Part shown: one piece after another, positions 4,187 to 59,809 of the stretch
How the letters are laid out: every line of letters begins with the position of its first letter
Numbering within the stretch: the first letter of the stretch is position 1
Source: a virus
Taxonomy: Duplodnaviria; Heunggongvirae; Uroviricota; Caudoviricetes
Virus record (IMG/VR): IMGVR_UViG_3300022468_000286
Length of the DNA stretch: 64,000 bases
Strand: one strand, 5' to 3'
Made by a program: the position numbers and the translations under genes
The notes under the pieces: model-generated
Told to the model about the DNA's origin: nothing
Databases searched by the model: none
Seen by the model: the letters and a program-made list of their open reading frames with translations, nothing else

Positions 4187-7100
4187 ATGCTTAATCTAAG
4201 CGAATTAGCTTTTACAGTTCGGACTGAAGCCCTTGTAGATGCGGCTAATAAAGTAGCGGCTCTTGGGGAGTCCGTAGAGAACCTTGCAGGTTCATTCCAG
4301 AAACTAGAAAAGGCATCTTCAGATGCTGAGAAAACACAATCGCGAAATGCTAAGGCTGCAGCACAAGCTGTAGAAGCTCAAGCTAAGCCAAATAAGGCTC
4401 TAAGTGAAGCTGAATCTGCTGCGCTTAAAACAACCTCTGAACGTACTGATGCTGAAACTAAGAAGGTTAAAGCTCTAAAGGCAACGACACAAGCTGTAGA
4501 TGAAAGTACAGAAAGCGCCAAGAAGAGTTTAAGTATCCTTGAGCGCCAACAAACCATTCTAGAATTCCAAGCTAATGGTTACTCTAAAGGGCAATCCTCA
4601 ATTCTTGCATATGCTAAAGCTGCCGGTGTAGCTTCGGATGAAATTCAAGAAATCGGCAGAGTTCTACAAGCACAGAGAACTCTCATGGGAGGTGATCCGT
4701 TTGATAAAAGTCTAGGAAGCCTTCGCTCACTCCAGAACGAATTTAAATCTCTGAAAGAAGTACAACGTCTTTACACTGCAGAAATACCTTTAACTAGAAA
4801 GCAGATGGAAAATCTGGCTCTCGATAAGATTCGCCTTATCGAAGCTATGAAGATCGAGGGCAAGTCGATGACTGACATTAAAAACGCCATCCGTCAACTT
4901 AATGTAGAGTATATCACAACTGCCGGTAGTATTAATAAAATGATTCAAGCTGAGAACGCAATTGATGCTGCTCATAAAGATGCAGCTAAAGCGGCCTCGT
5001 ACCTTGAACGTGAAATGCAACGTGTAAACTTTGCCCTTCAAGAACAGAACAATGAACTGAACAAAGGTACTGCTAATGCTCTTAATCGTTTTGAACAAAA
5101 CCTGAAGCGTAGTGGACTTACCCTTGATCAGCAAAGAGTAAAGATGGATGAATATCGCAAATCTTTACTTGCTCTGGAAAAGACTAAAGGCGGTGGGAAT
5201 ACGGATTATATTAGTCGTGCCCTTGGTCCACAGATTACTGATATTTTCGTTGGTCTTGCTACAGGACAAAGCCCGTTGACAGTTATGCTTCAACAAGGTG
5301 GTCAACTGCGAGATCAGTTTGCTCTTGCTGGTGTTGCTGCTGCTGATATGGGTGCTACCATGCGTACTGCTGCTAGGGAGATGGTAACATCTGTAGCCGC
5401 TGTTGCTGGTGCCTTTAAGGATTTAATTGTAGGCGCCTTCATTGATACAGGCAAGGGTCTTGTGAACATGGTTGTTCAGTTTACAGGGCTGGCTAATGTA
5501 ATTGAAAAGGCAAGATATCAATTAACTCTGTTTGCAATGTCAGACCCATCTTTTGGTAAACCCCTGCTCGCTTTCTTTGCTGCACTTCGTGTGGCTGTGA
5601 TTGGTTTTGCAGCTACTATGGCCGCTACAGGTATTGGGGCGCTTATAGCTATGGCGGTTGCTATCAAGCAAGTTATCTCTGAAAATAATACTCTAGCGCG
5701 CTCTCTAGCTCTGTCTGGTGGAAGTCTAGCATTAACTCATAGTTCTGCTGTGCAGTTTGTAGAGACACTTTCAAGCATGGGAGTTACAACTGGCGTTGCT
5801 ACTGAAGCTCTGGCTGCAATGGCTAAGGCTGGCGGTTTCACAAGAGATGAAATTCTTATGGTAGGCAAGGCCGCTGCCGAGATGTCTACATATGCTGGCG
5901 TTTCGGTAGAAGATACAGTTAAAGCCTTTGATAAGCTCAAAGATAAGCCTGTAGAAGCCCTTATAGATATTGCCAAATCAACTGGTATGGTTTCTATTGA
6001 AACTATTAAGATGGTTGCTGAATTGCAAAAGGCAGGAAAGACGACAGAAGCTGCTGCGCTGGCTATGAAGACATATGCGGACGTTACTAAAACTCAAGTA
6101 CAGCAAATGAAGGATAACTATAATGGTTTTTCTTTGTTCATGATTAACTTGGGCAAGGGAATTAAGAACTTCTTCTCTGAGACTTTCAAAGTTCTTTTCT
6201 TAGCTAGTGATCCAACTAAGGAACTAGAAAAGCAACTTAGGAATACTCAAACACTGATTAACCAGTATAAAGGCGCTGCCACTTATACCCCTGAGGGTGC
6301 CACTGGAAGACAGGTAAAAATACTGGAAGAGCGTGCTAGAATGATCTCCAGCGAAATTAGCTCACAAGTGAGGCTGAATACTGAAAAAGAGAAACAACTT
6401 CAGCAGCAATCAGAAGAGGCCAAAAACTTTGGAATCGTTTCTGATGTTATGAAAGGTGTTAGCGGCGTGCTTGATAAGCAAATCGAGAAGACTCTTTCAC
6501 TGACAGATTACACTAAAAAGTACATCGCAGAGAAAACAAAAGAAGGCAAGTTCTCAAAAGAACAGCTTGCTAATATTGAAAAAGCCGCAAAGATTGAATG
6601 GGAAGGTCTGCAAAAGAAATCAAGCAATAAAGCTGATCCTCAAGAGAAGTATTTCGAGAGCCTAATGCGTAGTCTAACAAATGAAACAATCAAGGCTACA
6701 ACAGAACAGGACAAGTTAACCAAAGCATATACCAAGATGCTTGAATTAGCTGCCGACCCTCGATTCCAGAAACTTTCTGAACAAGAGAAAGCTAAAGCAT
6801 TTGACCTGCTAAACCAAGCTCATAACGCTGAACTAGCAACTGCTGCTACTGAACGTCAGACCGCAGCCGAAGAACTTAGGAATAAAGTTCTAGGTAAGGC
6901 AGAAGGACTTGGGAAGGAATATTACGATACTCTTGCGAAGATTCAACAGTACAATAAAGACGGTGTGTACTCTGATTCAGAAGTTATTCAACTGACTGAA
7001 GCATTATATAGAGCCACTCCTGCCTATAAAGCAAATATCAAAGCTGTTGAAGAGCTTAACGGCCTTCTTTTGAAATACAAAGAAGCAGCTATGGCAAGCT

Positions 7101-10069
7101 CACAAAGCATTGAGCAAGATAATGCTGCACTTGATCTTAGAATGCAAGTTCTAGGGCAAACAGAGTCTCAACAAGTTGCAATAACTCGTGAGTATGATCG
7201 TCAAGCTAAACTGTCTAGAGTTAATCTTGACCTTGAACTTAAGCGTCTTCAGATCGCTAAAGATTTTGCAGATAATCCAGTTAAACGCTGGGAACTTGAA
7301 GAACAAGCTGAACGTGAAGCTGCAGAGAAACGCAAAGTCATTAATCGTGAAGTTGCTGTTGCGTATGCAGAAGACATGCAGAAGGAATTCGACAGAATTC
7401 GTAACGGAATTACTGACAGTATTGTTACTGCTTTGTTTGAAGGCGGTAAAGCTGGCTCTAAGAAATTGCGTGATTTGGTTGTCGGCGCATTACGTCAGAA
7501 AGTCACCATCGTTGTAGATGCAGTGGTTAATACCTTGCTCGGCAATGTCATCGGTAGCCTTCTTGGCGGTGGTGGAGGCGGCATCGGTGGCGCAGTTGGC
7601 GGAGGTGCTGGCGGTCTAATTAATGCTGGCATGCAAGGCTACAGCCTTTACAGCGGTTTAACAAGCGGCACAGGTATTCTTGGTCGTATCGGTGGGATGA
7701 TTGGACTTGGCGCTTCAGCAGGTACTACTACAACAATTGGTGTAGGAACAAGCCTTGCTAACCCCGGAATGGCTGCAGCAATTAACCCACTAGCCGGTGC
7801 AGGCGCGGGCGCTGGGGGTGGGCTAGGTGCACTGGCTACAGCAGCTCCTTACATTCTCGCCATCGTCGCTATTGCTGCAAGTTGGAAGAAACTCTTTGGT
7901 CGTGAGTTGAAAGACTCTGGTATTCAAGGTCAATTTGGTGGTAAAGAAGGTTTCCAAGGTCAAGCTTATAGATTCTATAAGGGCGGTCTGTTCCGTTCCG
8001 ATAAGACTGAACTGAGTCCAATCGACAAAGCACTTCAGAAACAACTTGGTGACGCATTCACTGCAATGAAGACTCAAGTTACGGATTTTGCTAAGGTGCT
8101 GGGTCTTAATGCTGATAAGCTGAAGAACTTCACGTCAGATATTAAGATTAGTCTTCACGGCATGAACGAGAACGACATTTCTTCAAAGATTCAGGAAGCT
8201 CTGGCTACTGTGAATAATGAAATGGCGCAGGAGATTCTGGGTGAATGGGAAGATAAGACAAGAACTGAACGTAGAGTTGTAGCAGGTACAGGCTCGGGAA
8301 GCTCCGGAAGAGGTGCTGACGATTTTGATTCAAATCCAGCACAATTCGAGGATGTAACTGTAACTGATCGCGTCTATAAAGCAAGTAAGTACGCCAAGGA
8401 GGGTGAAAAAGCAATCGACACTCTAACTCGTCTTGCTACATCTCTTTCTGCAGTCAATCAAGTGTTTGACACACTTGGTGTTAAGCTGTACGAAAGTAGT
8501 CTTGCTGGCGGTGATTTAGCTAGTCAATTGGTTGATCTATTTGGTGGTATTGACAAGTTTGTTCAAAGCACGAACTTCTATTACCAAAACTTCTACTCTG
8601 CAACAGAACGTCAAGCTACGGCTCAACGTCAACTAGAAGCAGAATTTAAGAAGAATGGACTGACACTTCCTAAGACTCGTGAAGAGTACCGTAAGCTTGT
8701 GGAATCACAAGACTTGAGTACAGAAAAGGGTCGGAAGATGTATGCACTGCTGATGCAACTTGCACCAGTATTCGCTGAGATTTCTCAGAGTGCAGAAGAC
8801 ATTGCTGCTGCTGCGAAGGATAAACTTCGTGATGCATTGGAAAGTGCTTACAGTGCTTTAGAGAAAGCTGTGAATGCTCAGAAAGAACTTCTGCAGCAAC
8901 AAGCTCAGACTGCTCAAGAGACTGTTAACCGCTTGAAGGGTATTTTTGACATGCTTTCGAAGAATGTCAGAGAACTCTACATGCAAGTGGATAGTACTGC
9001 AAAGATGCTTGCAAGTCAAGGCCGAGCAGTTATTCAGCAAGCTCTATCTTCAGGTGTACTGCCAGATCAGAAACTACTGGAAGATTCTATCGGTGCTGTC
9101 CGTTCAGATATTGAAAGCACTCAATATGCTACTCAGTTTGAACAAGACAAAGCTAGATTAGAACTTGCTGCTGAACTGCAGATTCTACAAGAACAGGCTG
9201 GTGCACAACTAAGCACTGCTGAACTAATTCTGAAGGGTATCAAGGATCAAATCGAATATCTGGATGGTCTATTAAAGACTGCCAGAGAACAGATTGATGC
9301 TGCTCTTGGAATTACCAACGCTGTGATTAGTGTCGAACAAGCTCTCAAAGACCTAGCAGATATTCTTAAGCCCGCTGCTCCAGATACTGGAACTGTAGGT
9401 AAAGGAAATAATGCAGTCGCAGGTAAGCCTGTGTTTGGTCCTACCGGCCCCGGCCCTAGTGGCCCTGCTCCCAAAGAGTTGAAGCCCGGTGAAAAGACGG
9501 CAGACGGCAAGTACGTGGTCGAAGCTTATCTTGGAAGTTACGGTACAGTTGTCCGTAGTGCTACTGACGAAGAACAATCTAGACTTGCAGCCAAAGAGGA
9601 TGCTTACCGTCAAGCTTGGGCCGTTGGTACAGAATCTGGTGATTTGGCTTCGTTCTTTATTATGGCTCGTGACAGTGGTATTTCTCTACTGGAGCTATCT
9701 GCTCTTGCAGGTTATTACTATGAAGATATGTACAAGGCTGCTACCTCTGTGGGTGTTCAGCGATTCGCTACAGGCGGCGCATTCACTAATGGAATTGTAC
9801 AACGTCCTACTAACTTCAATATGGGTCAGATGGGTGAAGCTGGACCTGAAGCTATTCTTCCGTTGACAAACGTAGGAGGTCGCTTAGGTGTTCACGCTGT
9901 AGGTTCTGGATCAGAAACTGAAGAGAGTTCTGTTCTTTCACGTAGAGTTGACAATATGAGTATTGAACTGCAAGCAATTGCTATAAATACTTCTAAGGTC
10001 GCTAGACTGCTGGAACGTGTAACACGCGACGGTGAATCACTCATTGTCAAAGATGCTGCAACAGTTTAA
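4187..10069 (+). CDS. Tail tape measure protein
   Basis: 1960 aa, with long alpha-helical coiled-coil stretches. There are hydrophobic segments around aa 480-510 and a Gly-rich segment (LLGGGGGGIGGAVGGGAGG) around aa 1125-1220. A conserved C-terminal motif (FATGGAFTNG...GEAGPEAILPL) is present. Position after the chaperone pair fits. Confidence 0.9.
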   Translation: MLNLSELAFTVRTEALVDAANKVAALGESVENLAGSFQKLEKASSDAEKTQSRNAKAAAQAVEAQAKPNKALSEAESAALKTTSERTDAETKKVKALKATTQAVDESTESAKKSLSILERQQTILEFQANGYSKGQSSILAYAKAAGVASDEIQEIGRVLQAQRTLMGGDPFDKSLGSLRSLQNEFKSLKEVQRLYTAEIPLTRKQMENLALDKIRLIEAMKIEGKSMTDIKNAIRQLNVEYITTAGSINKMIQAENAIDAAHKDAAKAASYLEREMQRVNFALQEQNNELNKGTANALNRFEQNLKRSGLTLDQQRVKMDEYRKSLLALEKTKGGGNTDYISRALGPQITDIFVGLATGQSPLTVMLQQGGQLRDQFALAGVAAADMGATMRTAAREMVTSVAAVAGAFKDLIVGAFIDTGKGLVNMVVQFTGLANVIEKARYQLTLFAMSDPSFGKPLLAFFAALRVAVIGFAATMAATGIGALIAMAVAIKQVISENNTLARSLALSGGSLALTHSSAVQFVETLSSMGVTTGVATEALAAMAKAGGFTRDEILMVGKAAAEMSTYAGVSVEDTVKAFDKLKDKPVEALIDIAKSTGMVSIETIKMVAELQKAGKTTEAAALAMKTYADVTKTQVQQMKDNYNGFSLFMINLGKGIKNFFSETFKVLFLASDPTKELEKQLRNTQTLINQYKGAATYTPEGATGRQVKILEERARMISSEISSQVRLNTEKEKQLQQQSEEAKNFGIVSDVMKGVSGVLDKQIEKTLSLTDYTKKYIAEKTKEGKFSKEQLANIEKAAKIEWEGLQKKSSNKADPQEKYFESLMRSLTNETIKATTEQDKLTKAYTKMLELAADPRFQKLSEQEKAKAFDLLNQAHNAELATAATERQTAAEELRNKVLGKAEGLGKEYYDTLAKIQQYNKDGVYSDSEVIQLTEALYRATPAYKANIKAVEELNGLLLKYKEAAMASSQSIEQDNAALDLRMQVLGQTESQQVAITREYDRQAKLSRVNLDLELKRLQIAKDFADNPVKRWELEEQAEREAAEKRKVINREVAVAYAEDMQKEFDRIRNGITDSIVTALFEGGKAGSKKLRDLVVGALRQKVTIVVDAVVNTLLGNVIGSLLGGGGGGIGGAVGGGAGGLINAGMQGYSLYSGLTSGTGILGRIGGMIGLGASAGTTTTIGVGTSLANPGMAAAINPLAGAGAGAGGGLGALATAAPYILAIVAIAASWKKLFGRELKDSGIQGQFGGKEGFQGQAYRFYKGGLFRSDKTELSPIDKALQKQLGDAFTAMKTQVTDFAKVLGLNADKLKNFTSDIKISLHGMNENDISSKIQEALATVNNEMAQEILGEWEDKTRTERRVVAGTGSGSSGRGADDFDSNPAQFEDVTVTDRVYKASKYAKEGEKAIDTLTRLATSLSAVNQVFDTLGVKLYESSLAGGDLASQLVDLFGGIDKFVQSTNFYYQNFYSATERQATAQRQLEAEFKKNGLTLPKTREEYRKLVESQDLSTEKGRKMYALLMQLAPVFAEISQSAEDIAAAAKDKLRDALESAYSALEKAVNAQKELLQQQAQTAQETVNRLKGIFDMLSKNVRELYMQVDSTAKMLASQGRAVIQQALSSGVLPDQKLLEDSIGAVRSDIESTQYATQFEQDKARLELAAELQILQEQAGAQLSTAELILKGIKDQIEYLDGLLKTAREQIDAALGITNAVISVEQALKDLADILKPAAPDTGTVGKGNNAVAGKPVFGPTGPGPSGPAPKELKPGEKTADGKYVVEAYLGSYGTVVRSATDEEQSRLAAKEDAYRQAWAVGTESGDLASFFIMARDSGISLLELSALAGYYYEDMYKAATSVGVQRFATGGAFTNGIVQRPTNFNMGQMGEAGPEAILPLTNVGGRLGVHAVGSGSETEESSVLSRRVDNMSIELQAIAINTSKVARLLERVTRDGESLIVKDAATV

Positions 10070-29239: not shown

Positions 29240-29315
29240 TGGCGCGTCTGGAGGGATTCGAACCCCCGACAAGTGATGTAGAAGATCACGGCTCTATCCA
29301 CTGAGCTACAGACGC
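29240..29315 (-). tRNA. tRNA-Arg (anticodon UCU)
   Basis: 76-nt cloverleaf read by hand. It has the acceptor stem GCGTCTG/CAGACGC, D-stem GCTC/GAGC, anticodon loop CU-UCU-AC, T-loop GGTTCGAATCC, discriminator G and an encoded CCA. Confidence 0.8.
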
Positions 29316-36531: not shown

Positions 36532-36618
36532 TGGTGCAACAGGTGAGATTCGAACTCACGGTGGGATTTCTCCACTGGCTTATGAGGCCAGAGCCTGCAA
36601 CCGCACGGCGTCTGTTGC
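36532..36618 (-). tRNA. Type II (long variable arm) tRNA with anticodon CAU and discriminator A
   Basis: 87 nt read by hand. It has the acceptor GCAACAG/CTGTTGC, a 3-bp D-stem, anticodon stem CTGGC/GCCAG with loop CU-CAU-AA, a ~15-nt variable arm, T-arm GTGAG-TTCGAAT-CTCAC and an encoded ACCA. Position 8 is A. Confidence 0.6.
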
Positions 36619-42052: not shown

Positions 42053-43123
42053 TCACTCCAGATTGCTCATAAAGAATTCGCGGGCTTTCTTAGAGATCGC
42101 TCCGTTTACATCCTTTGGCTCAATACCTGATGCGATCATGGTAGAAAGCTCTTCCTTGAGGATATCACCTACAACCCAGCGCAGGTAGTCGCCAGTGCTT
42201 CGAACACTGTGTTCTAGGCCCATCTCTGTAAGCTTATCAAGCCCTTGCTTCAGACGGTTTTCAGTACAAGCGTAATCCACGAACTCTTGAACACTCTTAA
42301 CCTTTTCCTCGTCCACTGGAGCAATAGTCTTTACCTTACTAGCACTGTGCTTCTCACCTTTAACCTTGAAGCGAAGATCGCACAGGGTAGTATATAGTTC
42401 CTGTGAAATATCTGGATTATCATCAAGGTTTACTTCGGGCGATACAGACCAAAAAATACCTTCACCAATAAGCTCTCGGGCTTCATCTGGGCCAAGTAGT
42501 TGTCGTGCTACTGGGCAGTCCTTCTCTACACTTTCAGTCAGTGCAACCAGTTGATTTTGCACCAGTGTTGGAGTATCGAAATCAATCTCTACACTATACG
42601 TAGGAAAGTTATGCGAGAAATAAATATTATCAGGACGGCCCCTCTCATCAAAGAAAGATTCCCAACTGCGAGTGGAATGCCATTCCTTCCCTTCTGCATC
42701 TTCACTGAAGCGAATAGCAAAGACTACAAACATCTTTGGAAGATAGGACAGGCCAACACCCTTTTGGATATTACCACCGCACCATTCACCGTAGATTTGA
42801 ACGCACTCTCCGTCCTTGAGGATACCTCCAGAAAGGTCAATAGCTACATTATCCCAGTATTCCTTGTTACCGTATACCCAAGCAGCAAAGCCAGCGTTGT
42901 CGCTCTCAGGAGTGATGATACGTTCACGGCTTTGGCACCACCATTCACCTTTTTGGTTAATTACAACGGCAGCATTAGTGCCGTGCAGCTTTACAGTACC
43001 CTGCAGGCGAACTTTAGGTACAGGCACATTGTGGTACTTAGCTGTAGATTGCACTTGCTTAATAGCATCGCGGAACTGCCCGGTGCTTGGAAACTTAATG
43101 AAGGTATTCTTTTGAACTTGCAT
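42053..43123 (-). CDS. RNA ligase (Rnl2-like)
   Basis: Motif I is VKLHGTNAAV (T4 Rnl2 has KIHGTN). The size of 356 aa is compatible, and later motifs are EWCGGNIQ and ...KVKGEKHSASK. Confidence 0.55.
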   Translation of the reverse strand: MQVQKNTFIKFPSTGQFRDAIKQVQSTAKYHNVPVPKVRLQGTVKLHGTNAAVVINQKGEWWCQSRERIITPESDNAGFAAWVYGNKEYWDNVAIDLSGGILKDGECVQIYGEWCGGNIQKGVGLSYLPKMFVVFAIRFSEDAEGKEWHSTRSWESFFDERGRPDNIYFSHNFPTYSVEIDFDTPTLVQNQLVALTESVEKDCPVARQLLGPDEARELIGEGIFWSVSPEVNLDDNPDISQELYTTLCDLRFKVKGEKHSASKVKTIAPVDEEKVKSVQEFVDYACTENRLKQGLDKLTEMGLEHSVRSTGDYLRWVVGDILKEELSTMIASGIEPKDVNGAISKKAREFFMSNLE

Positions 43124-46448: not shown

Positions 46449-47309
46449 TTAAACTCCTTTCAACTGTTCAAGAACTGACCTGCGATTAACTTCAGAAAGC
46501 TCTTTCCAGAAACTCAAATCATACACATTAGTAATAAATGCAGGAACATCTTGCCACATTTTAGGCAAGGATTCTGCAAACTTCTGAGGGTTATTGTACA
46601 TGACTTCAGAGTTCTTTGCACTCAAACGCATCAACTTCTTCTTACCTACGTAGTAAGGAGTTTTGATCTTTGCTGGACTAAGACGATCAGGATCATCCTT
46701 TAGATTGTACACCATGAAACCTTCACCTGTATTAACCTCAGCGATTGCAAGGATACCTTTGAGAGTGCCTACGTACATATCCTCTGCTTTGCCGTAAGGG
46801 CCGAATGTACCGTCTACGCTGCGCCGACCAAGATAATGCGCCCCTACAGGCTCATCAACAATATGCGGATCGTCCTTATGAACAATCTCATAAAGCAATG
46901 TGCAGTCAGGAGCCAACCAGTTCAAGTCCGGCAGAAGTTCCTTAGCATATCCAACAAAATCACTCTTAGTGCTTCCTGTGGTGCTTACGATCAGTTCGCC
47001 TTCATGCTTACTGACGCATGCCATGAATCCGTTGTACTTCTTGTAAGCAATCACTGGAGTGTCCAGAGGAACATCCTTCCACCAGCCGTTTTCCAAGTAG
47101 TTAAAGCTCTTACGTGGTGCTGCAACTACAAGCTTGCCGGTGCGATTATCATAAGTCTGTCCACGGCATTCCAGAAGGCGTTCGTCAGTATCCCAGAGGT
47201 AATCAAACATTACACGACGAGCGTACTTGAACGTATCCAAGTGTCCGTTGGTGCTTACGGTCGCCAGCTTGTTAGCAACCAACTCTTGCATTTGTTCGTA
47301 TGTATTCAT
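46449..47309 (-). CDS. Covalent nucleotidyltransferase, RNA-ligase-like (Rnl1-type candidate)
   Basis: Motif I is AYKKYNGFMACV, motif IV EGFMVYN and motif V KIKTPYYVGKKK. 286 aa. Confidence 0.45.
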   Translation of the reverse strand: MNTYEQMQELVANKLATVSTNGHLDTFKYARRVMFDYLWDTDERLLECRGQTYDNRTGKLVVAAPRKSFNYLENGWWKDVPLDTPVIAYKKYNGFMACVSKHEGELIVSTTGSTKSDFVGYAKELLPDLNWLAPDCTLLYEIVHKDDPHIVDEPVGAHYLGRRSVDGTFGPYGKAEDMYVGTLKGILAIAEVNTGEGFMVYNLKDDPDRLSPAKIKTPYYVGKKKLMRLSAKNSEVMYNNPQKFAESLPKMWQDVPAFITNVYDLSFWKELSEVNRRSVLEQLKGV

Positions 47310-47730: not shown

Positions 47731-49155
47731 TTACACACTGGCGTTAGCACGTACTTGATCAAAGGTCATAGAGTTCAGCACCTGACCGTTGAGGTAACGG
47801 CAGATGAGAGCCCCGTCAGAGGTATCTTCACGAGTCAGAAGGTTATCCGTCACGTACTCACCGTCATTGCCCCGGAAGAGCCACACAAGGCCCTTCTTGG
47901 ATACCTTGCCCTTATCGGTAACTGGGTCTTTGAACACGTCACGCCAATCAACAGAAGCAAAGAATCCTTCGTCTGAATCAAGCTTTTCGTTATTACCGAC
48001 AGCACTGCACTTCATGGCGTACTTCTGGTCATCCCGTGTAACAGCTTGCAGCAATGCACCGCCTTGGCCGAAGGCGAGCATATCAGCAGAGTACCCGTAA
48101 ATGTCCACAGCAGTACGCAGGATGGTTTCAATGGTGAGCTTAGTAATACCGTCGCCCCAGATCATGCGAACGTTATTCAGAACCTTGTAGCCCTTATCGT
48201 TCGTCACATATCCGAAGTATTGTTCAAGGATTCGCAAGCATGTAGGTACGACCAAAGCAGGATCGCCGCTATCAGGACGGACAACAAGAGTAGCACAGCT
48301 TGCCTTGATTTCCTCTGCAAGTTCACCCCACATATGGCATGCCTTGTAGATATCATACGAATCAGATACGCATGCAAAGATAGCACCGGGCTTGGCAAAT
48401 TTCTTAATCATATTGCGGTAAGCATCCTTTTCACCGTCACGACCCCAAGAGGTAATCGTGCTGTGTTCGCTCGCGCCGATACTGAAAATAACAGGCTCGG
48501 TAGCGTCGTAATACTTAGCAGCAAACAGTTGACCAGTCATAGTGTCAGAGCCCATGAAATTTACGGCATGCGACAGAGAGCCAAGACCAGCAGTTTCAAA
48601 GCTAGAAGCACCACGAGCGCCAAAGTCATGCAGCTTGAAATCCAGACCAGAAACATCTCCGGACTTTTCAAGGTAGCTTTTGATTACCTTCTTGATTTCC
48701 CGAGAGTTAGTAGCGACAGTAGAAGTGTACCATGCAGCGCGAAGGAGAGCAGTTTCAATCCAAGTAGTTGCGAATGGAAATTCAGGGTCAGTATTGACAA
48801 CCACAGCAAGAACATTCTTTGTCTTGACAACAGAGCCATCTGGTACTGCAAATACAGCCACAGGCCAATAACCGTTGTACTTCTTGAACATCTTACGGAT
48901 TTGTTCTTCAGGGAATACACTACCGAAAGCAGGCCAAGTCTTCACTGCAAAGTCAATATCTTCTTCAGTGAAGGGCTTAGACAGATATTCACGGATGAAA
49001 GGCTGGACAAGTCCTGCGACCACTTCATCATAAATCCCACCGCGAGATTCAATGTAAGAGTAAACGTATTGCACATCTTCAGGGTATTGGGCAAACATGC
49101 CTACCTTGTAAGAGTCCGTGTTGAGAAGAATGGATTGTGTGTTGAAATTAGTCAT
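47731..49155 (-). CDS. nadV: Nicotinamide phosphoribosyltransferase (NAMPT/NadV)
   Basis: 474 aa type II PRTase with NAMPT-family organisation and DFGARGASS. Confidence 0.8.
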   Translation of the reverse strand: MTNFNTQSILLNTDSYKVGMFAQYPEDVQYVYSYIESRGGIYDEVVAGLVQPFIREYLSKPFTEEDIDFAVKTWPAFGSVFPEEQIRKMFKKYNGYWPVAVFAVPDGSVVKTKNVLAVVVNTDPEFPFATTWIETALLRAAWYTSTVATNSREIKKVIKSYLEKSGDVSGLDFKLHDFGARGASSFETAGLGSLSHAVNFMGSDTMTGQLFAAKYYDATEPVIFSIGASEHSTITSWGRDGEKDAYRNMIKKFAKPGAIFACVSDSYDIYKACHMWGELAEEIKASCATLVVRPDSGDPALVVPTCLRILEQYFGYVTNDKGYKVLNNVRMIWGDGITKLTIETILRTAVDIYGYSADMLAFGQGGALLQAVTRDDQKYAMKCSAVGNNEKLDSDEGFFASVDWRDVFKDPVTDKGKVSKKGLVWLFRGNDGEYVTDNLLTREDTSDGALICRYLNGQVLNSMTFDQVRANASV

Positions 49156-49165
49156 AGTAAGCTCC

Positions 49166-50194
49166 TTACTTTGGGTTGATAATGAAAGAGTTATAAAAAG
49201 CAGGCAAGGGTTTTGTCTGCGTCATCACCTGAATTATATCAGAATGATCGTCATGCAGTCTATAAGTATTTACTGCATCTGAGATAGGAACCCACTTGCA
49301 CTCTGCTGCGTCGTCAGCACCATTTGCTCTTGGCAACTTACCGTCAGCATCTGGTGCGATCTTGAAGTGTACCACAAAAGTGCTGCGAGGAATACCTGAG
49401 CCGCGTGTAGGGCTATCAAAAAGTTTAGTATTTACGATTGAACCTACCAGAACTTTCTCAGGAACACGAAGATTGGTTTCCTCGAAAGCCTCGCGGATGG
49501 CGCATTCTGTAAAAGTTTCAGTATTATTCTTGAATCCTCCCGGAAGAGCCCAAGTATTACGCCCCGGTGCGTACTTCCGACGAATCAGTAGAATATGTCC
49601 ATTGCATTCAATCAGAGCGTCTGAGCAGACAAAGTTCAAAGTCTCCGGATATGGGTAGTCCTTGAAACGATGATTTTCATTAATGAAATACTTGAAGTCC
49701 TCTACAACATCCTCTGGAAGTGCAAGTCCACTGTGTTCTTTTTGATTAACGAACATGCTCCATCGAATAGTAGTTGCATTGATATTACTTGAGCTTTCGA
49801 TATTATGAAAGCCATATTGCGGGAACCACTTCAGATAATCATTACCCTCTTTATCAAACCCAAAGAGAATCCTCTTGCCGAATGATTTATGCATATTGAC
49901 GATCTCTTGTACATCAAGAATCCACTGAGTATCACTGTACTTATAGTCATTCACAGGGATTACCTGAGCGTCTTCAAAATCCAGACCATTCTTATCTAGA
50001 AAAGCCTGAATCAGTTCCTTGCGCTCGGAGTAAGTCCAAGGGTTTTTGATTGTTCGTGCTACGTTAGCACTACCTACGACGATTAGAAGCTTGTCGCAGA
50101 GCTTCTTAGCCTTCAGGATAATCTCCTTGTGTCCTTCGTGCAGAGGTTGGAATCGACCAATAATGATTCCGAGAGTCTTTGTTTTTTCTTGCAT
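49166..50194 (-). CDS. Bifunctional NMN adenylyltransferase / Nudix hydrolase (NadM-Nudix type)
   Basis: The N-terminal GIIIGRFQPLHEGH nucleotidyltransferase motif is present. The Nudix box is LPGGFKNNTETFTECAIREAFEETNL. Confidence 0.8.
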   Translation of the reverse strand: MQEKTKTLGIIIGRFQPLHEGHKEIILKAKKLCDKLLIVVGSANVARTIKNPWTYSERKELIQAFLDKNGLDFEDAQVIPVNDYKYSDTQWILDVQEIVNMHKSFGKRILFGFDKEGNDYLKWFPQYGFHNIESSSNINATTIRWSMFVNQKEHSGLALPEDVVEDFKYFINENHRFKDYPYPETLNFVCSDALIECNGHILLIRRKYAPGRNTWALPGGFKNNTETFTECAIREAFEETNLRVPEKVLVGSIVNTKLFDSPTRGSGIPRSTFVVHFKIAPDADGKLPRANGADDAAECKWVPISDAVNTYRLHDDHSDIIQVMTQTKPLPAFYNSFIINPK

Positions 50195-50617: not shown

Positions 50618-51070
50618 TCAAAGTTTAACCGAAAACCTGTTACGCTGGCGCTGAAGTACAGCATCGGGAACATCATGTACTGACATTGTATCATTACGAT
50701 TCTCAATAATCAAGGACACAAAGTTAGCATTGTATTCTTTTGCAATATCTTGACACACCTTCACTTCCGCTTCGGTAGTGCTGGTGTTAGACACTACGAC
50801 ATTCATACCGTATTTCAGGGCCAAGCCTGTCGTGGCTTGGCACCAAGAATGCGCCTGATGCAGCTTTGATCGGTCAAACGTATAAACTCCGTCATTCATG
50901 AAGTACATATCTGTTTCAATATGCCAAGCACCAATAGCATCGGCAAAAGCCTTAGCAAAGGTACTCTTACCTGCTCCGCTAACGCCGCGAACAAGATAAA
51001 GAGTAGATTTAGTTTTATCAAGCATTGATTTTCTCCTTTTGACTGATCTTGTTGGCAGTAATGACATCAA
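50618..51070 (-). CDS. Polynucleotide 5'-kinase-like P-loop kinase (T4 Pnk kinase-domain-like)
   Basis: The Walker A is GVSGAGKST. The DMYF, VVVSNTST and HDVPDAVLQRQRNRF motifs occur in the same order as the T4 Pnk kinase domain. It is kinase-only, 150 aa. Confidence 0.5.
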   Translation of the reverse strand: MMSLLPTRSVKRRKSMLDKTKSTLYLVRGVSGAGKSTFAKAFADAIGAWHIETDMYFMNDGVYTFDRSKLHQAHSWCQATTGLALKYGMNVVVSNTSTTEAEVKVCQDIAKEYNANFVSLIIENRNDTMSVHDVPDAVLQRQRNRFSVKL

Positions 51071-51333: not shown

Positions 51334-51783
51334 CTAATCTCCTTTAAAAATTTCCACAAGTATACCAGCTTCACGAAGCAAGTCAAGACCTTTTGTATCA
51401 CGGTAAGGCTCTTTGTATATCAACCTAGTGATACCAGCATTTATCATCATAGCAGAGCATGGAACGCAGGGCGACAGTGTAACATACATTGCAGACCCAA
51501 GGCAAGAGACTCCTTCACGAGCAGCTTTCATTATACAGTTCAATTCAGCATGAATAACTTCTGGTTTTGTAATAAGTTCTGGAGGGTTCCAGTGTCCCCA
51601 CTTAAAAATCTGATCTTCGCACTCGTTAGAAAGCCCTATAGGCGTTCCATTGAATCCAGCTAGGCATACCCCTTGGCTAGTCACCAAACAGGCCCCTACG
51701 GTGGCTCTACGGGCCTTGCTGAGCTTTGCGTGCAGCATTGCTACACCCATGTATGTACTATCAAGTTCTTTTTGATTAGCCAC
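51334..51783 (-). CDS. dCMP deaminase
   Basis: The zinc motifs are HAELNCIMKAA and SPCVPCSAMMINAGI. Confidence 0.8.
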   Translation of the reverse strand: MANQKELDSTYMGVAMLHAKLSKARRATVGACLVTSQGVCLAGFNGTPIGLSNECEDQIFKWGHWNPPELITKPEVIHAELNCIMKAAREGVSCLGSAMYVTLSPCVPCSAMMINAGITRLIYKEPYRDTKGLDLLREAGILVEIFKGD

Positions 51784-52217
51784 TAAGATTTCTCCAAAGA
51801 TTCAAAAACTTTAAATTTCCTATCCAGTAGCCACAGCAAGCCATCATCCCCGTAATTATAATCATCAGGGATTCTCCAGCAGTGAGCTTTTCTATGCACC
51901 TCATCCAGCAAATCATGATTGGTATTTGCAAGATGCTTGCGGACACTGTATTCATTATCTTCGTTCATGAAGATTATATGGTCAGCCCACCATATCAAAT
52001 TCTCAGAGATAGGAATCAGTGCAAGCTTGAGATTGCTACCGCAAGAGCGAGCGTTATATCCGCGCTTAATAGCCTCTGCTGCAGCCGTAGGACTACGCAG
52101 AAGACCAACAGTGCATACGAAAAGAAGACGCTTGGCTGGACCTTGCGAATGATTATTATAAGGGCAACCATTAGCGAATAGCTTCTCTGTTTTTGTGATA
52201 TACGGCTCTACTGACAC
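51783..52217 (-). CDS. Low-molecular-weight protein tyrosine phosphatase / ArsC-fold phosphatase-like
   Basis: The CX5R(S/T) P-loop is LLFVCTVGLLRSPTAAAEA. 144 aa. Confidence 0.5.
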   Translation of the reverse strand: MSVEPYITKTEKLFANGCPYNNHSQGPAKRLLFVCTVGLLRSPTAAAEAIKRGYNARSCGSNLKLALIPISENLIWWADHIIFMNEDNEYSVRKHLANTNHDLLDEVHRKAHCWRIPDDYNYGDDGLLWLLDRKFKVFESLEKS

Positions 52218-52435
52218 GGAATACCTCCACCATTTTCATTAAGGATTTGCTGAACAGTTGTTTGCCGGGCTACATTGTGAAGATATCCAGCAATGCAGCG
52301 CTGCTCCACTGGTACTTGATATGTGTGCTGCATTGGCTCTTTATTTTGTGGAAAGAGGATTGTAGCTGCGATAGCAACAATCACTATAGCTATCAGCATT
52401 TCAATAAATCCAAATCCTTTTTGTAGGAATTTCAT
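52208..52435 (-). CDS. Type IV pilin / pseudopilin-like protein
   Basis: The class III signal is MKFLQKG|FGFIEMLIAIVIVAIAA, with Glu at +5 and a hydrophobic helix. The C-terminal Cys pair is RCIAGY...IPCQ. 75 aa. Confidence 0.6.
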   Translation of the reverse strand: MKFLQKGFGFIEMLIAIVIVAIAATILFPQNKEPMQHTYQVPVEQRCIAGYLHNVARQTTVQQILNENGGGIPCQ

Positions 52436-52496
52436 ATAACCTCCAAGAATAAACCCTGAGTATACCAGAAGTGTACTCAGGGTTAAGGCTTTAAGA

Positions 52497-53297
52497 TTAC
52501 TTGTTGATATTACCCAGAGCAGTCAGATTGCTAGGGATAATGATCGTCTGTACCTTGCCAGCCTTAACAGCTTCTGCAATCAGCAGTTGAGACTGAGCCT
52601 GCATGTAAGCAATACTTTGACCTGCATTCTCAGACAGAGCCTTTTGGCGCTTTGCTTCGGCTTCAGCAATTGCAATTTCGTTTTGCTTAATCTTCAGTTC
52701 ATTCTGAGACTTCACAAGGTCAGTAGCAGCCTTGAGAATATCAGCATTAGGCTGAATATTCCGAACCTGCACCGCAGACAGAATCAAGGAAGTATCAAGC
52801 TTTTCTTCACGAAGTTGCGCTTGAACTAGATCACGAATCTCAGCTTCAATCTTCACTCGGCTATCAGCGACTTCCAAGGACTTGTAGCCACGGACGGACT
52901 TGTAAACAGCGTTATTGACCAAGGTATTCATGTAATTATACATCAGGTAAACATCCCCGTCAGTTCCCTTCATGTGAAAACTCTTGGCTTTATTCTTGTA
53001 AAGCTCTGCAACAGCAGTAGGAGACACGCTATACACGATGCTTACATCAAAATCCGCCAGAGCAGAGTTATCAGCCGTCAAGGGCTTTGCATCATTAAGA
53101 GGGACAGTCAAATCTCGAATTGGGAATTGCAGAACATCCCCAAACAGAACTTGATGGTATCCAGTGTTGAGTTCATTACCCTCGATAGTACCGCCAGTGG
53201 TAACACGCACACCGATTTCGCCGTCAGTAATCCGTGTGCAACCAGTGCTAAATGCAGCAGCAACAACCAGAGCAGCAATCATAAAAAACTTCTTCAT
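52497..53297 (-). CDS. SPFH/band-7 (stomatin/HflK/C-like) lipoprotein
   Basis: The start MKKFFMIAALVVAAAFSTGC has an RBS aaaggag. The SPFH core and a C-terminal coiled-coil (EAEAKRQKALSE...) follow. The ORF-track start at 53360 is an extension. Confidence 0.55.
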   Translation of the reverse strand: MKKFFMIAALVVAAAFSTGCTRITDGEIGVRVTTGGTIEGNELNTGYHQVLFGDVLQFPIRDLTVPLNDAKPLTADNSALADFDVSIVYSVSPTAVAELYKNKAKSFHMKGTDGDVYLMYNYMNTLVNNAVYKSVRGYKSLEVADSRVKIEAEIRDLVQAQLREEKLDTSLILSAVQVRNIQPNADILKAATDLVKSQNELKIKQNEIAIAEAEAKRQKALSENAGQSIAYMQAQSQLLIAEAVKAGKVQTIIIPSNLTALGNINK

Positions 53298-53307
53298 ATA
53301 AACTCCT

Positions 53308-53505
53308 TTAAAGAAAAATAACAATACACATTGTAGCAAGTGCAGCAAGGATTGCAACACCTACATATAGAAACAAAGCTTTTACTGGAACTTGTGGAAG
53401 GTATTTCTTCACTCCATAGTAAATAAAAACCATTAGTACATATACTAGAGTGAAACTCAGAAGTACTTTAATCAAAGGAAGCATAGTATTATGCGTTGGT
53501 GTCAA
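53308..53505 (-). CDS. Small 2-TMD membrane protein (NfeD-like partner candidate)
   Basis: 65 aa hydrophobic, immediately upstream of the SPFH gene. Confidence 0.35.
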   Translation of the reverse strand: MTPTHNTMLPLIKVLLSFTLVYVLMVFIYYGVKKYLPQVPVKALFLYVGVAILAALATMCIVIFL

Positions 53506-53882: not shown

Positions 53883-54050
53883 TTAACTCCTTTTTGGTTG
53901 AAATAAAGCACAGGTATTTGTTTGCTTAAGTTGTTTCGATAGAGCGTATTGTACGCCTTTTTGGAAGGCTGTCAACACTTGTTCTTTGTGTGGTGTATTT
54001 GCAACACTATCCAAGATAGCTTGCTTTTCTTTATGTGTAAATTTAATCAT
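53883..54050 (-). CDS. Small hypothetical protein (55 aa, not in ORF track)
   Basis: ATG with RBS gagg, encoding MIKFTHKEKQAILDSVANTPHKEQVLTAFQKGVQYALSKQ... Confidence 0.25.
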   Translation of the reverse strand: MIKFTHKEKQAILDSVANTPHKEQVLTAFQKGVQYALSKQLKQTNTCALFQPKRS

Positions 54051-57733: not shown

Positions 57734-57907
57734 ATGAATACATTTACAGAAATTCAGGTCAAGAAACTTCTAGAATCCAGACACAAGACGGAAGACGGTA
57801 AGCCGATAGATCAGGTTTGGTTCACCAGAAAAGAAGTTCTAAAAATCCTTGACAACGCTCAAAAAGAATTGCAAAATACCACATCAAACAACATAAGGAG
57901 TAAATCA
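57734..57907 (+). CDS. Small hypothetical protein (57 aa)
   Basis: ORF MNTFTEIQVKKLLESRHKTEDGKPIDQVWF... Confidence 0.2.
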
Positions 57908-58080
57908 TGAGTTTTATTATTTTGATTATTTTGCTGGTGCTTTACTTTGTGCCAAGCATCGTAGGCTACAGCCGTAACCACAAGCAGACTACACCAATCC
58001 TGCTGCTGAACATCTTCCTCGGATGGACTGCACTGGGATGGGTTGCAGCACTGGTGTGGGCCAGCATGAAGCAAGACTAA
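57907..58080 (+). CDS. Superinfection immunity (Imm-like) small membrane protein
   Basis: 57 aa, MSFIILIILLVLYFVPSIVGYSRNHKQTTPILLLNIFLGWTALGWVAALVWA. This matches the LGWT..GW..AL.WA Imm_superinfect pattern. Confidence 0.45.
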   Translation: MSFIILIILLVLYFVPSIVGYSRNHKQTTPILLLNIFLGWTALGWVAALVWASMKQD

Positions 58081-58354: not shown

Positions 58355-58729
58355 ATGAAGAAATTAATCCCTGCAGTACAGAATTTTGCACCAGAAGTCG
58401 GCGATACTATCGTGACTGCTGAACGTGGAGAATATATTTGTGTACCTCTGGATGATCTGGAGTACACCAACTCACCCTCTGCTGCATTCAAAGGTACAAA
58501 TGAGTATGGCTTCTCTCGTTGGAAGTCAAACGGTGTACCTGCCTCAGAAATGGTCTATGACGATCATATAATGCAGGCATACCAAGTAGTGAAGATTATC
58601 AAGAAGAAGAATAACAAATCTCAAAATCCTGTGAGTATTCCTGAAAATAATCTAGAATTCCGTGTACGTGTCCTCGAAAAGGAAAACGAAATTCTTACAC
58701 GTCTTTTGATGAAGGAGGGTAAGCTGTGA
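58355..58729 (+). CDS. Hypothetical protein
   Basis: 124 aa. Confidence 0.3.
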   Translation: MKKLIPAVQNFAPEVGDTIVTAERGEYICVPLDDLEYTNSPSAAFKGTNEYGFSRWKSNGVPASEMVYDDHIMQAYQVVKIIKKKNNKSQNPVSIPENNLEFRVRVLEKENEILTRLLMKEGKL

Positions 58730-58995
58730 GTATGTTTTTGATTGTTTATTTGATCAGTGTTATTCTGATGTTGACTTTTTACTGGATTGATTGCAAGAAC
58801 ACAAAGTACCGAGATATTACATACGGTGATCTTTTGATTTGTTTTGTATCTAGCTTCTTGCCAGTAGTAAATACTTTCTTTGTGGCGCTATGCCTGTGGA
58901 TGTTTATTTATGGTGCAGAGTTCTGGTCCAAGACTGCTATCAAGGGCAAACAGCCCCCTGAGAAGAAACTTTATTTTGATAATGAAGGGTACTGA
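58726..58995 (+). CDS. Small 2-TMD membrane protein (paralogue A)
   Basis: 89 aa containing YWIDCKNTKYRDITYGDLL...FLPVVNTFFVAL. Confidence 0.4.
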   Translation: MSMFLIVYLISVILMLTFYWIDCKNTKYRDITYGDLLICFVSSFLPVVNTFFVALCLWMFIYGAEFWSKTAIKGKQPPEKKLYFDNEGY

Positions 58996-58996
58996 T

Positions 58997-59254
58997 ATGA
59001 GTTTACTGATTATTTCTTTTGTGGTTTATTTCTTGTCTTGTCTTATTATGGCTTCTGGGTTGTACTGGTTCAACCTCCGAGATAACATGCGTGATACCAG
59101 TCTTGGCGGTTTTACTGCGTTTGCGGTATTGGCTTTTACTCCCGTGCTTAATACTCTAATGGTGCTACTAGTTCTTTTCTTGCTATTCGAGCAGTACGTA
59201 TATGAGCCTTACATCCAGCCTGCGATGAAGTGGAAACCATTTGCTAAGGATTAA
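58997..59254 (+). CDS. Small 2-TMD membrane protein (paralogue B)
   Basis: 86 aa containing YWFNLRDNMRDTSLGGF...FTPVLNTLMVLL, the same pattern as 58726..58995. ORF-track 58880 is an N-extension. Confidence 0.4.
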   Translation: MSLLIISFVVYFLSCLIMASGLYWFNLRDNMRDTSLGGFTAFAVLAFTPVLNTLMVLLVLFLLFEQYVYEPYIQPAMKWKPFAKD

Positions 59255-59275
59255 ACTTCCTGCTACAATGCAGGC

Positions 59276-59809
59276 ATGAAAAATCTTAAACAAAAAGCTA
59301 AAGTATTTCTGGGAATCTGTCTAGTGGCACTAACACTGTCGCTGGACAACCCAGAAAATACTCTAAAGACTCGAAGCACTTCTGGATTTGTTGCAAATAT
59401 CCAACACATTGAAACAGAAAAGAAGTGCATCAAGGAAGCTCTTTACTATGAAGCTCGTGGTGAAGGTGAGCAAGGCATGCGTGCCGTACTTGCAGTCATT
59501 CATAACCGTACAAAGGCAAAGGGATTCCCTGAAACTTATTGCAAAGTAATCCACCAGCCTTTACAATTCAGCTATCGCAACGGAACACAGCCCGGCATTC
59601 ACATTGAAATAAAGCCCATTAAAGCCTCTGATAAAGTGGCGTATGACTTAGTATCAATAATTGCTGAAGATGCCGTAAACGGGCGATTAGAGCCCTTGCT
59701 AGGGCCAGATGTATTGTGGTATCATACGAAGGATGTTAAGCCGAGGTGGTCTAGGTTCATGAAGAAAGTGAAGACTATATCTAAGCATCATTTCTTTAGT
59801 AAGGAGTAA
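59276..59809 (+). CDS. Secreted SleB-type cell wall hydrolase (Hydrolase_2 family)
   Basis: A signal peptide is present. The motif is ALYYEARGEGEQGMRAVLAVIHNR. Confidence 0.55.
   Translation: MKNLKQKAKVFLGICLVALTLSLDNPENTLKTRSTSGFVANIQHIETEKKCIKEALYYEARGEGEQGMRAVLAVIHNRTKAKGFPETYCKVIHQPLQFSYRNGTQPGIHIEIKPIKASDKVAYDLVSIIAEDAVNGRLEPLLGPDVLWYHTKDVKPRWSRFMKKVKTISKHHFFSKE

Follow-up and report, generated by a model that had tools for sequence, protein, structure and literature searches.

Four consecutive genes in a stretch of viral DNA raise the question of whether they encode one system or have come to lie side by side. The stretch (64,000 nucleotides [nt] of a virus of the Caudoviricetes, IMG/VR record IMGVR_UViG_3300022468_000286) is called the window below, and a preliminary description, made from its letters alone, had read the minus-strand genes at 51783-53505 as a single envelope-targeted module. 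Four consecutive minus-strand open reading frames (ORFs) were indeed found exactly where that description had placed them. All four have many protein-level homologues, and none of them is therefore a chance ORF. On balance, we favor the view that the region is a juxtaposition and not one system: a core of TM58, a small membrane protein, and an SPFH protein, an optional mini-pilin as an accessory, and a separate phosphatase. In the order of transcription, the genes are as follows.

53308..53484, minus strand: TM58, 58 amino acids (aa), two transmembrane (TM) segments; from the ORF list, the DNA reading and an alignment of relatives
52497..53297, minus strand: SPFH/Band_7 protein, probable lipoprotein, 266 aa; from Pfam, PHROG and AlphaFold2/Foldseek
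52208..52435, minus strand: mini type IV pilin-like protein (mini-pilin), 75 aa; from N_methyl, TIGR02532 and the family alignment
51783..52217, minus strand: soluble enzyme of the low-molecular-weight protein tyrosine phosphatase (LMW-PTP) superfamily, 144 aa; from the fold model, the P-loop and Foldseek

Genes that travel together in related phages

Viral loci were selected in three independent ways, by SPFH, by mini-pilin and by phosphatase, and were scored with purpose-built hidden Markov models. The SPFH-selected set held the best 80 of at least 549 IMG/VR relatives (33 clusters at 90% identity), the mini-pilin-selected set 39 loci (34 non-redundant clusters), and the phosphatase-selected set 76 loci (589 kb). 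A TM58 homologue was located directly upstream of SPFH, at a distance of 10 to 17 nt, in 70 of the 80 SPFH-selected loci and in 25 of the 33 clusters. The gene after SPFH was highly variable (49 families in 79 loci). We conclude that TM58 and SPFH form a tightly linked two-gene phage cassette, which is present in hundreds of phage contigs.

When the mini-pilin was used for selection, SPFH adjoined it in 21 of the 39 loci (17 of the 34 non-redundant clusters), 19 times directly upstream on the same strand and twice downstream. No such adjacency occurred in the 76 phosphatase-selected loci that served as the control (Fisher P ~ 1e-12). The genes around the 20 loci with an SPFH-pilin pair fell into at least 11 different sets, and SPFH identity was as low as 41%, showing that the adjacency is kept across genomic settings. 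Furthermore, the SPFH stop and the pilin start overlap in four loci (L041, L043, L056 and L060). Thus, the mini-pilin is a frequent but optional third gene of the SPFH cassette.

Three observations were made beside these counts. In SPFH-less pilin loci (L032, L033, L040, L042 and L063, at about 4900-6300), the pilin often directly follows an AAA-type ATPase of 335 to 344 aa (phrog_1250). A further gene for a protein with two TM segments (54 to 66 aa, motif GAVYLVAGLVNLF, no family match) is often located between SPFH and the mini-pilin or just after the pilin (L034:5798-5998, L037-L039:5807-6007, L044:2554-2754, L061:2808-2972, L036:6264-6740); in some phages, it may belong to the cassette as a fourth gene. 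The GenBank phage closest by SPFH, Synechococcus phage BUCT-ZZ01 (ON615601.1; locus L001; 41% identity), also holds TM58, NAMPT and a TM133 homologue, and its gene content is similar to that of the window phage and its relatives. Its mini-pilin is located about 12 kb from SPFH.

The phosphatase behaved differently. It was found within 3 kb of SPFH in 1 of the 80 SPFH-selected loci (L172) and was absent from all 39 pilin-selected loci. Conversely, SPFH, pilin and TM58 were found in 0 of the 76 phosphatase-selected viral loci. The neighbors in these loci were UvdE (directly upstream in 27 of 77), a dATP/dGTP diphosphohydrolase, RNA ligase (9 loci) and dCMP deaminase (7 loci). We conclude that the phosphatase gene stands apart from the cassette, as an accessory gene of a nucleotide-metabolism and repair neighborhood with a presumably cytoplasmic product. 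A role in healing RNA 3' ends, considered because of RNA ligase and a P-loop kinase nearby (L079, L080 and Acidovorax phage ACP17), was kept as no more than a weak lead, since RNA ligase was nearby in 9 of 78 loci and UvdE was commoner.

Variation was also seen within the clade of the window phage, defined as the contigs with an SPFH protein at least 63% identical to that of the window. Megablast found no close phage relative in GenBank, and blastn matched the dCMP deaminase only; metagenomic contigs of 84 to 88 kb hold SPFH genes 83 to 89% identical to that of the window. The TM58-SPFH pair was present in every member of the clade, while the stretch up to the dCMP deaminase turns over. After TM58-SPFH, the members continue as follows.

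Window: pilin, phosphatase
L026: four genes, pilin, three more genes that end with dCMP deaminase, phosphatase
L029: HNH, two genes, phosphatase; pilin absent
L077: two genes, phosphatase; pilin absent
L075 and L076: one gene, pilin; phosphatase absent
L074: pilin and phosphatase both absent

All four combinations of presence and absence of pilin and phosphatase are thus represented, and the uninterrupted run of four genes in the window is one arrangement among several of a variable region. In the same stretch, window-phage relatives have HNH endonuclease insertions and, beside the dCMP deaminase, a second short gene of cytidine-deaminase type (113 to 121 aa; L026:3504-3845, L074:2107-2472, L077:4845-5186), which marks the stretch as a hot spot of gene turnover.

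A literature search, in which coverage of subscription journals was incomplete, found no paper on the TM58 partner, the mini-pilin family, their pair or the triad. None of the four proteins matched a PADLOC-DB defense model at E <= 1.

Features of the four proteins and layout of the genes

TM58 had been described as a protein of 65 aa with two TM segments. The two segments were confirmed, but the start is most likely ATG 53484 (58 aa) and not TTG 53505 (65 aa), because all 16 aligned relatives span 54 to 58 aa and most have exactly 58. The hydrophobic segments enclose a K/R-rich loop of 12 residues, three of them Lys, which is probably cytoplasmic. TM58 has no Pfam, NCBIfam or PHROG family match; the best Pfam model was DUF4750 (E = 0.14). 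An identity with NfeD was rejected: no Pfam NfeD match was obtained, and since the two TM segments and the short loop use up all 58 aa, no space is left for a soluble NfeD domain. Of the supposed mimicry of an NfeD/SPFH operon, the conserved pairing stands and the likeness of TM58 to NfeD does not. QmcA-YbbJ, the SPFH-NfeD operon of Escherichia coli (8z5g), and archaeal stomatin-NfeD likewise pair an SPFH gene tightly with one that encodes a small membrane protein, and QmcA shares the SPFH fold and the long coiled-coil helix with the phage protein (Foldseek, 8e-8). However, TM58 has neither an NfeD domain nor any other soluble domain, and QmcA faces the cytoplasm, whereas the phage SPFH protein would face the periplasm. 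In the Acinetobacter phages Bphi-R2919 and Minot, a longer gene for a protein with two TM segments is located directly upstream of SPFH. No mini-pilin was present in the ORFs flanking SPFH in these two phages, and tblastn with the pilin found none in the genomes of the annotated phrog_200 phage groups named below.

The assignment of the second protein as an SPFH/band-7 lipoprotein held. Pfam Band_7 (PF01145) matched residues 23 to 216 with E = 4e-18 (66.5 bits; cutoff, 23.6), phrog_200, named "lipoprotein," matched at 4e-35, and PF01145 was present in all 120 homologues listed. Relatives number at least 549 in IMG/VR and 1116 clusters in the protein database. The N-terminus reads MKKFFMIAALVVAAAFSTG followed by C, and this Cys20, behind a signal-like hydrophobic stretch, does not vary among 15 diverse and 40 closer homologues, with G or A ahead of it; position -3 of the lipobox is atypical (Ser). 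The protein is probably exported, lipid anchored and periplasm facing. Its AlphaFold2 model has strands at 20-91 and 171-183, helices at 96-164 and a long C-terminal helix at 185-245. About 250 of the 266 residues were aligned by Foldseek with HflK/C, prohibitin, erlin, stomatin, QmcA and flotillin, all of them SPFH proteins that build cages or rings; HflK/C bound to FtsH (9cz2) was the best match at 2e-11, nearly equaled by prohibitin, erlin, stomatin and QmcA. A profile search of the PDB gave a single, weak match to QmcA (8z5g). HflK/HflC-FtsH (9cz2, 7wi3) has periplasmic SPFH domains and a cage-forming architecture. It differs in that the phage protein comes from a single gene, has a lipobox Cys and not an N-terminal TM helix, and shares 14 to 19% identity.

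Homologues with 25 to 41% identity are found among the phage SPFH "lipoproteins" of phrog_200 (Acinetobacter Straboviridae and Obolenskvirus, Erwinia Vi01-like phages, Bacillus phages AR9/PBS1 and cyanophages). A degenerate and narrow DNA pattern for IETGEVGVRV had one true match in 185,579 bacterial species genomes, on a 5-kb contig of a metagenome-assembled genome, and the SPFH cassette looks confined to phages. Phage genome papers invoke HflK/C and lambda CII for SPFH lipoproteins (PMC10269572, PMC4936722); according to a 2026 paper, why an SPFH gene occurs in a phage genome "remains unclear" (PMC13239085). Mass spectrometry of a Vi01-like phage recovered the SPFH protein among the gene products in its proteomics table (PMC10892097).

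The third protein matched N_methyl (PF07963) at 6e-7 (29.2 bits; cutoff, 21.2) and TIGR02532 at 1.4e-6 (27.9 bits; cutoff, 16.3), in agreement with its description as prepilin-like. It has a short leader, the motif KG/FGFIE with Gly-1 and Glu+5, and a hydrophobic alpha1-N helix. The mature protein has about 68 aa, of which some 46 lie past the hydrophobic helix; 28 of these form the loop from Cys47 to Cys74, the only two Cys, which ends in NENGGGIPC. A globular alpha-beta pilin domain is lacking, and no equivalog pilin model of NCBIfam matched at cutoff. An exhaustive HMMER search yielded 44 family representatives at 50% identity, nearly all of 66 to 104 aa; the ten that were looked up are unnamed and come from metagenome contigs only. 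Leaders are short throughout the 41 aligned mini-pilins, Gly-1 and Glu+5 are retained in 39 and Phe+1 in 32, and 34 have exactly two Cys, which enclose 21 to 28 residues (mode, 26). The loop follows the pattern C-I-x-G-Y-x-H ... Q-x-L-N-E-N-G-G-G-I-P-C, for which no match was found in Pfam, NCBIfam or a PDB profile search. With the N-terminal profile, PDB matches were PilA (2e-11), Geobacter PilA-N (4e-11), PilE (2.5e-8) and, more weakly, GspG (8e-5). Mere anchoring in a membrane does not require Glu+5, and its retention suggests that the cell treats the mini-pilins as pilins. The protein is probably processed by the host PilD/GspO and seated in the inner membrane like a pilin subunit.

Short type IVa pilins (Geobacter PilA-N, 61 aa) and the major pilins PilA and PilE share the class III signal, Gly-1, Phe+1, Glu+5 and the alpha1-N helix with the phage family (PDB, 2e-11 to 7e-8), and the C-terminal disulfide loop of the mini-pilin recalls the pilin D-region. 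Unlike them, the phage family lacks the globular alpha-beta domain and is found on lytic-phage contigs, not beside pilus-assembly genes. By tblastn, GenBank phages gave ACP17, one weak Aeromonas match and BUCT-ZZ01 only, in a search whose low-complexity filter probably masks the hydrophobic N-terminus. The ACP17 homologue keeps the Cys-loop behind an ordinary hydrophobic N-terminus without a prepilin signal, and therefore the loop, probably facing the periplasm, is probably the working part.

A 2006 comparison of T4-like genomes lists the SPFH and N-methylation Pfam hits of Aeromonas phage 44RR2.8t separately and not as a pair (PMC1524935). In this phage, ORF098c, a membrane-anchored SPFH protein, is directly followed by ORF097c, a 72-aa mini-pilin with the canonical signal MKGFTLIE and two Cys. 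Its SPFH protein differs in having 307 aa and a TM anchor, the C-terminus of its pilin is unrelated, and its upstream gene is no TM58 homologue. We regard ORF098c/ORF097c as a distant analogous pair.

For the fourth protein, described as a CX5R phosphatase like LMW-PTP, the active-site loop, the Asp and the fold support the description, but Pfam LMWPc (PF01451) gave 15.6 bits over the P-loop stretch only, below its cutoff of 23.2. NCBIfam gave no match, and PDB profile matches were weak (YwlE, 0.005). In 40 homologues, C35-x5-R41-S42-P43 and D118 are invariant. The AlphaFold2 model has a pLDDT of 95.3, and its 35 best Foldseek matches in the PDB are all LMW-PTP, arginine phosphatase or ArsC (probability, 0.99 to 1.0; TM, 0.43 to 0.61). 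From the conserved P-loop and Asp together with the modeled fold, it is a divergent member of the LMW-PTP superfamily. Wzb, YwlE, YfkJ, MPtpA and ArsC share the fold (Foldseek probability, 1.0; TM, 0.5 to 0.6), and the LMW-PTPs also have a C-x5-R-(S/T) P-loop where the first strand turns into a helix, together with an invariant Asp ahead of the final helix; they differ in the loop itself, which is C-x-G-N-x-C-R-S in their case and C-[ST]-[VA]-G-[LM]-L-R-S-P in the phage family. The phage proteins make up a family of their own that has no precomputed Pfam domain, and its sole source name, from JGI, is "predicted protein tyrosine phosphatase." No hydrophobic segment, signal peptide or TM segment was detected, so the protein should be cytoplasmic. 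In ACP17 (KY979132.2), an unannotated ORF of 134 aa (L030:6635-7039, about 154634-155038) is a homologue of the phosphatase (4e-34), and the mini-pilin Cys-loop homologue is located about 1.6 kb downstream, across the record ends.

Two putative signals accompany the genes.

53948..53975, minus strand: sigma-70-like promoter match, TTGACA-16-TACAAT, 11/12; a consensus match only
52445..52484, minus strand: stem-loop between the SPFH and pilin genes (stem-loop proper, 52484-52452); from RNA folding

The promoter match lies 5' of a gene for 140 aa that precedes TM58 and is a candidate start of the transcription unit. The SPFH gene begins with ATG 53297, 10 nt past the TM58 stop and behind an AGGAG ribosome-binding site. 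Just past its stop, the stem-loop has a folding energy of -26.5 kcal/mol (z = -5.7; none of 200 shuffles was equally stable) and a U-rich UAUUCUU tail on its 3' side. It was not picked up by a simple terminator scan, because its loop is interrupted, and it may be an intrinsic terminator, an attenuator or an mRNA-stabilizing hairpin. The pilin gene starts at 52435 with GGAGG ahead of it, the phosphatase gene starts with GTG 52217 in a 10-nt overlap with the pilin stop, and the phosphatase stop shares 1 nt with the start of the dCMP deaminase gene, to which the phosphatase gene is predicted to be translationally coupled. By physical coupling, the order is thus TM58-SPFH, then the hairpin, then pilin-phosphatase-deaminase. 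The cassette is located within a minus-strand block of replication and nucleotide genes, and early expression is the best reading of this location. A lysis role for the cassette was set aside, because the endolysin and holin-like genes are elsewhere, about 5 kb away and on the opposite strand.

Favored reading and its rivals

The juxtaposition that we favor would work as follows. TM58, a hairpin membrane protein, and the secreted SPFH lipoprotein encoded 10 nt downstream would form the core. The SPFH protein probably assembles into an oligomeric ring or cage that sits on the membrane and faces the periplasm, as its fold and long C-terminal helix match those of the cage formers HflK/C, prohibitin, erlin and QmcA. 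As an integral membrane protein, TM58 would serve it as a partner or client, and together they would fence off a patch of the envelope early in infection. Where it is present, the mini-pilin would enter the inner membrane through the host prepilin peptidase, with its disulfide loop toward the periplasm. As the outcome, we consider it most likely, if only tentatively, that these proteins disturb the assembly of type IV pili or of the type II secretion system or keep a second phage from entering, which would amount to superinfection exclusion or envelope takeover. T4 Imm and Sp and the Pseudomonas phage proteins Tip and Aqs1, which block type IV pili, are small early proteins, envelope located or pilus directed, that exclude superinfecting phages; they are the functional analogy that we favor for the cassette, with no relation in sequence or fold.

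A bolder version, which we hold to be unlikely, makes TM58, SPFH and the mini-pilin an undescribed envelope-takeover system. A stripped-down pilin would be fed into the host prepilin pathway, and a periplasmic SPFH cage seated on TM58 would trap or misassemble pilin subunits, so that type IV pili, type II secretion or DNA uptake would be shut down and rival phages excluded. If true, the SPFH lipoproteins so common in phages would receive their first function, and an SPFH scaffold would for the first time be seen to act on pilus machinery.

Several results weigh against the favored reading. The mini-pilin was directly downstream of SPFH in 3 of the 80 SPFH-selected loci and in a single one of the 33 clusters, and the core pair must therefore work without it. 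Half of the mini-pilins lie in other places, such as behind an AAA ATPase or RecA, and in the window, the strong hairpin stands between the SPFH and pilin genes. The residue after Cys20 of the SPFH protein is Thr. By the sorting rules of E. coli, Thr at +2 sends a lipoprotein to the outer membrane, which would place the SPFH protein away from TM58 and the pilin. Its model has moderate confidence (pLDDT 67), the ACP17 homologue of the mini-pilin lacks the prepilin signal, and the window phage already has a separate Imm-type superinfection immunity gene. Furthermore, oligomerization, lipid modification, the membrane of residence and PilD processing are steps that we infer.

The single-module view of the preliminary description, an envelope-targeted device for host manipulation or exclusion made of all four genes, has in its favor their contiguity on one strand with short or overlapping junctions, the pilin-domain homologue and phosphatase lying a few kb apart in L026 and ACP17, and the phosphatase 2.2 kb upstream of SPFH in L172. 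It does not agree with the 76 phosphatase loci without SPFH, pilin or TM58 and the 39 pilin loci without phosphatase, or with close relatives that show all four combinations, independently and in differing gene orders. Nor does it fit a phosphatase without a signal peptide or TM segment that is coupled to dCMP deaminase. When co-occurrence in related phages was checked, TM58-SPFH was constant and the pilin often adjacent, but the phosphatase was unlinked outside the clade of the window. We conclude that the co-occurrence data largely refute the single-module view, which we consider very improbable. Expressing all four genes as one unit would accordingly be the wrong experiment, as the phosphatase belongs with nucleotide and repair genes. 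The other rivals leave the phosphatase aside. In one of them, only TM58-SPFH is functional as a pair, and the mini-pilin acts alone as a poison subunit or competitor for PilD, both being small early "moron" genes that share a permissive spot. The rarity of an adjacent pilin among SPFH clusters, the pilins found elsewhere, the varied genes downstream of SPFH, the hairpin in the window and the 12 kb between the two genes in BUCT-ZZ01 are all consistent with this. However, half of the non-redundant pilins adjoin SPFH, in at least 11 flanking contexts and in some cases with stop/start overlaps, as compared to none of the 76 controls, which is not expected from chance landing, and a distantly related pair of SPFH and mini-pilin genes exists in a T4-like Aeromonas phage. 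We give this alternative a minor chance.

Two further rivals concern the SPFH protein itself. The cassette could mimic HflK/C and cage or titrate the host FtsH and thereby save membrane proteins of phage or host from degradation or expose them to it, with the pilin unrelated. The best structural match, HflK/C-FtsH (9cz2, 2e-11), and the predicted periplasmic placement, which fits HflK/C topology, agree with this role, and it is routinely proposed in genome papers (PMC10269572, PMC4936722). Against it, prohibitin, erlin, stomatin and QmcA match almost equally, a single gene stands in place of the HflK/HflC pair and a lipid anchor in place of the N-terminal TM helix, the sequence profile reaches QmcA, weakly, and no link of the cassette to FtsH appeared in our data; we consider it quite unlikely. 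Alternatively, the cassette could stabilize the host membrane or set the timing of lysis, keeping the proton-motive force and preventing premature holin triggering or abortive-infection pores, as proposed for functions of the rII/Psp type. SPFH proteins organize membrane microdomains and respond to membrane stress, the phage has rIIA, and the cassette is located in the presumed early block. However, the cassette and the lysis genes are about 5 kb apart and on different strands, the predicted location of the SPFH domain is periplasmic, and the association with the pilin is left unexplained, so that this alternative appears improbable.

Under the favored juxtaposition, the core and its accessory offer handles for experiments: a 58-aa partner that is nearly always with SPFH, a mini-pilin family found preferentially behind SPFH, and an apparently exported SPFH protein built like HflK/C and prohibitin. 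Among the genes of large lytic phages that lack an explanation, those for SPFH "lipoproteins" are comparatively common, and if the pilin link is functional, it would be a new route by which a phage tampers with pilus or secretion machinery.

Other genes of the window phage

The gene products of the window phage include a PolA-type polymerase, a T7-type primase-helicase, rIIA and several ligases; two RNA ligases are encoded at 42053-43123 and 46449-47309. A P-loop kinase of 150 aa at 50618-51070 (minus strand) belongs to AAA_33 and matches the polynucleotide kinases of phrog_505 (1e-11); it has no phosphatase domain. Kinase, RNA ligases and the LMW-PTP-like gene had hinted at a set for the healing of RNA ends, an idea that co-occurrence backed weakly. 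This kinase and the dCMP deaminase are adjoined, in all relatives examined, by an NAD salvage pair (47731-50194, minus strand), which consists of NAMPT (NAPRTase and NAMPT_N) and a fused NMN adenylyltransferase/Nudix protein.

On the plus strand, a T4 Imm-family superinfection immunity protein is encoded at 57907-58080 (PF14373, 2e-18). It is followed, at 58726-59809, by two multi-TM proteins and then a SleB-type cell-wall hydrolase with a hydrophobic N-terminus (59276-59809), and this Imm-TM-SleB stretch, opposite in strand to the cassette, is likely the lysis block. Genes for tRNA-Arg(TCT) and tRNA-Met(CAT) are located on the minus strand at 29240-29315 and 36532-36618, respectively. The plus-strand block near the start of the window holds a gene for a minor tail protein (1974-3185, phrog_290) and an ORF of 1960 aa (4187-10069).

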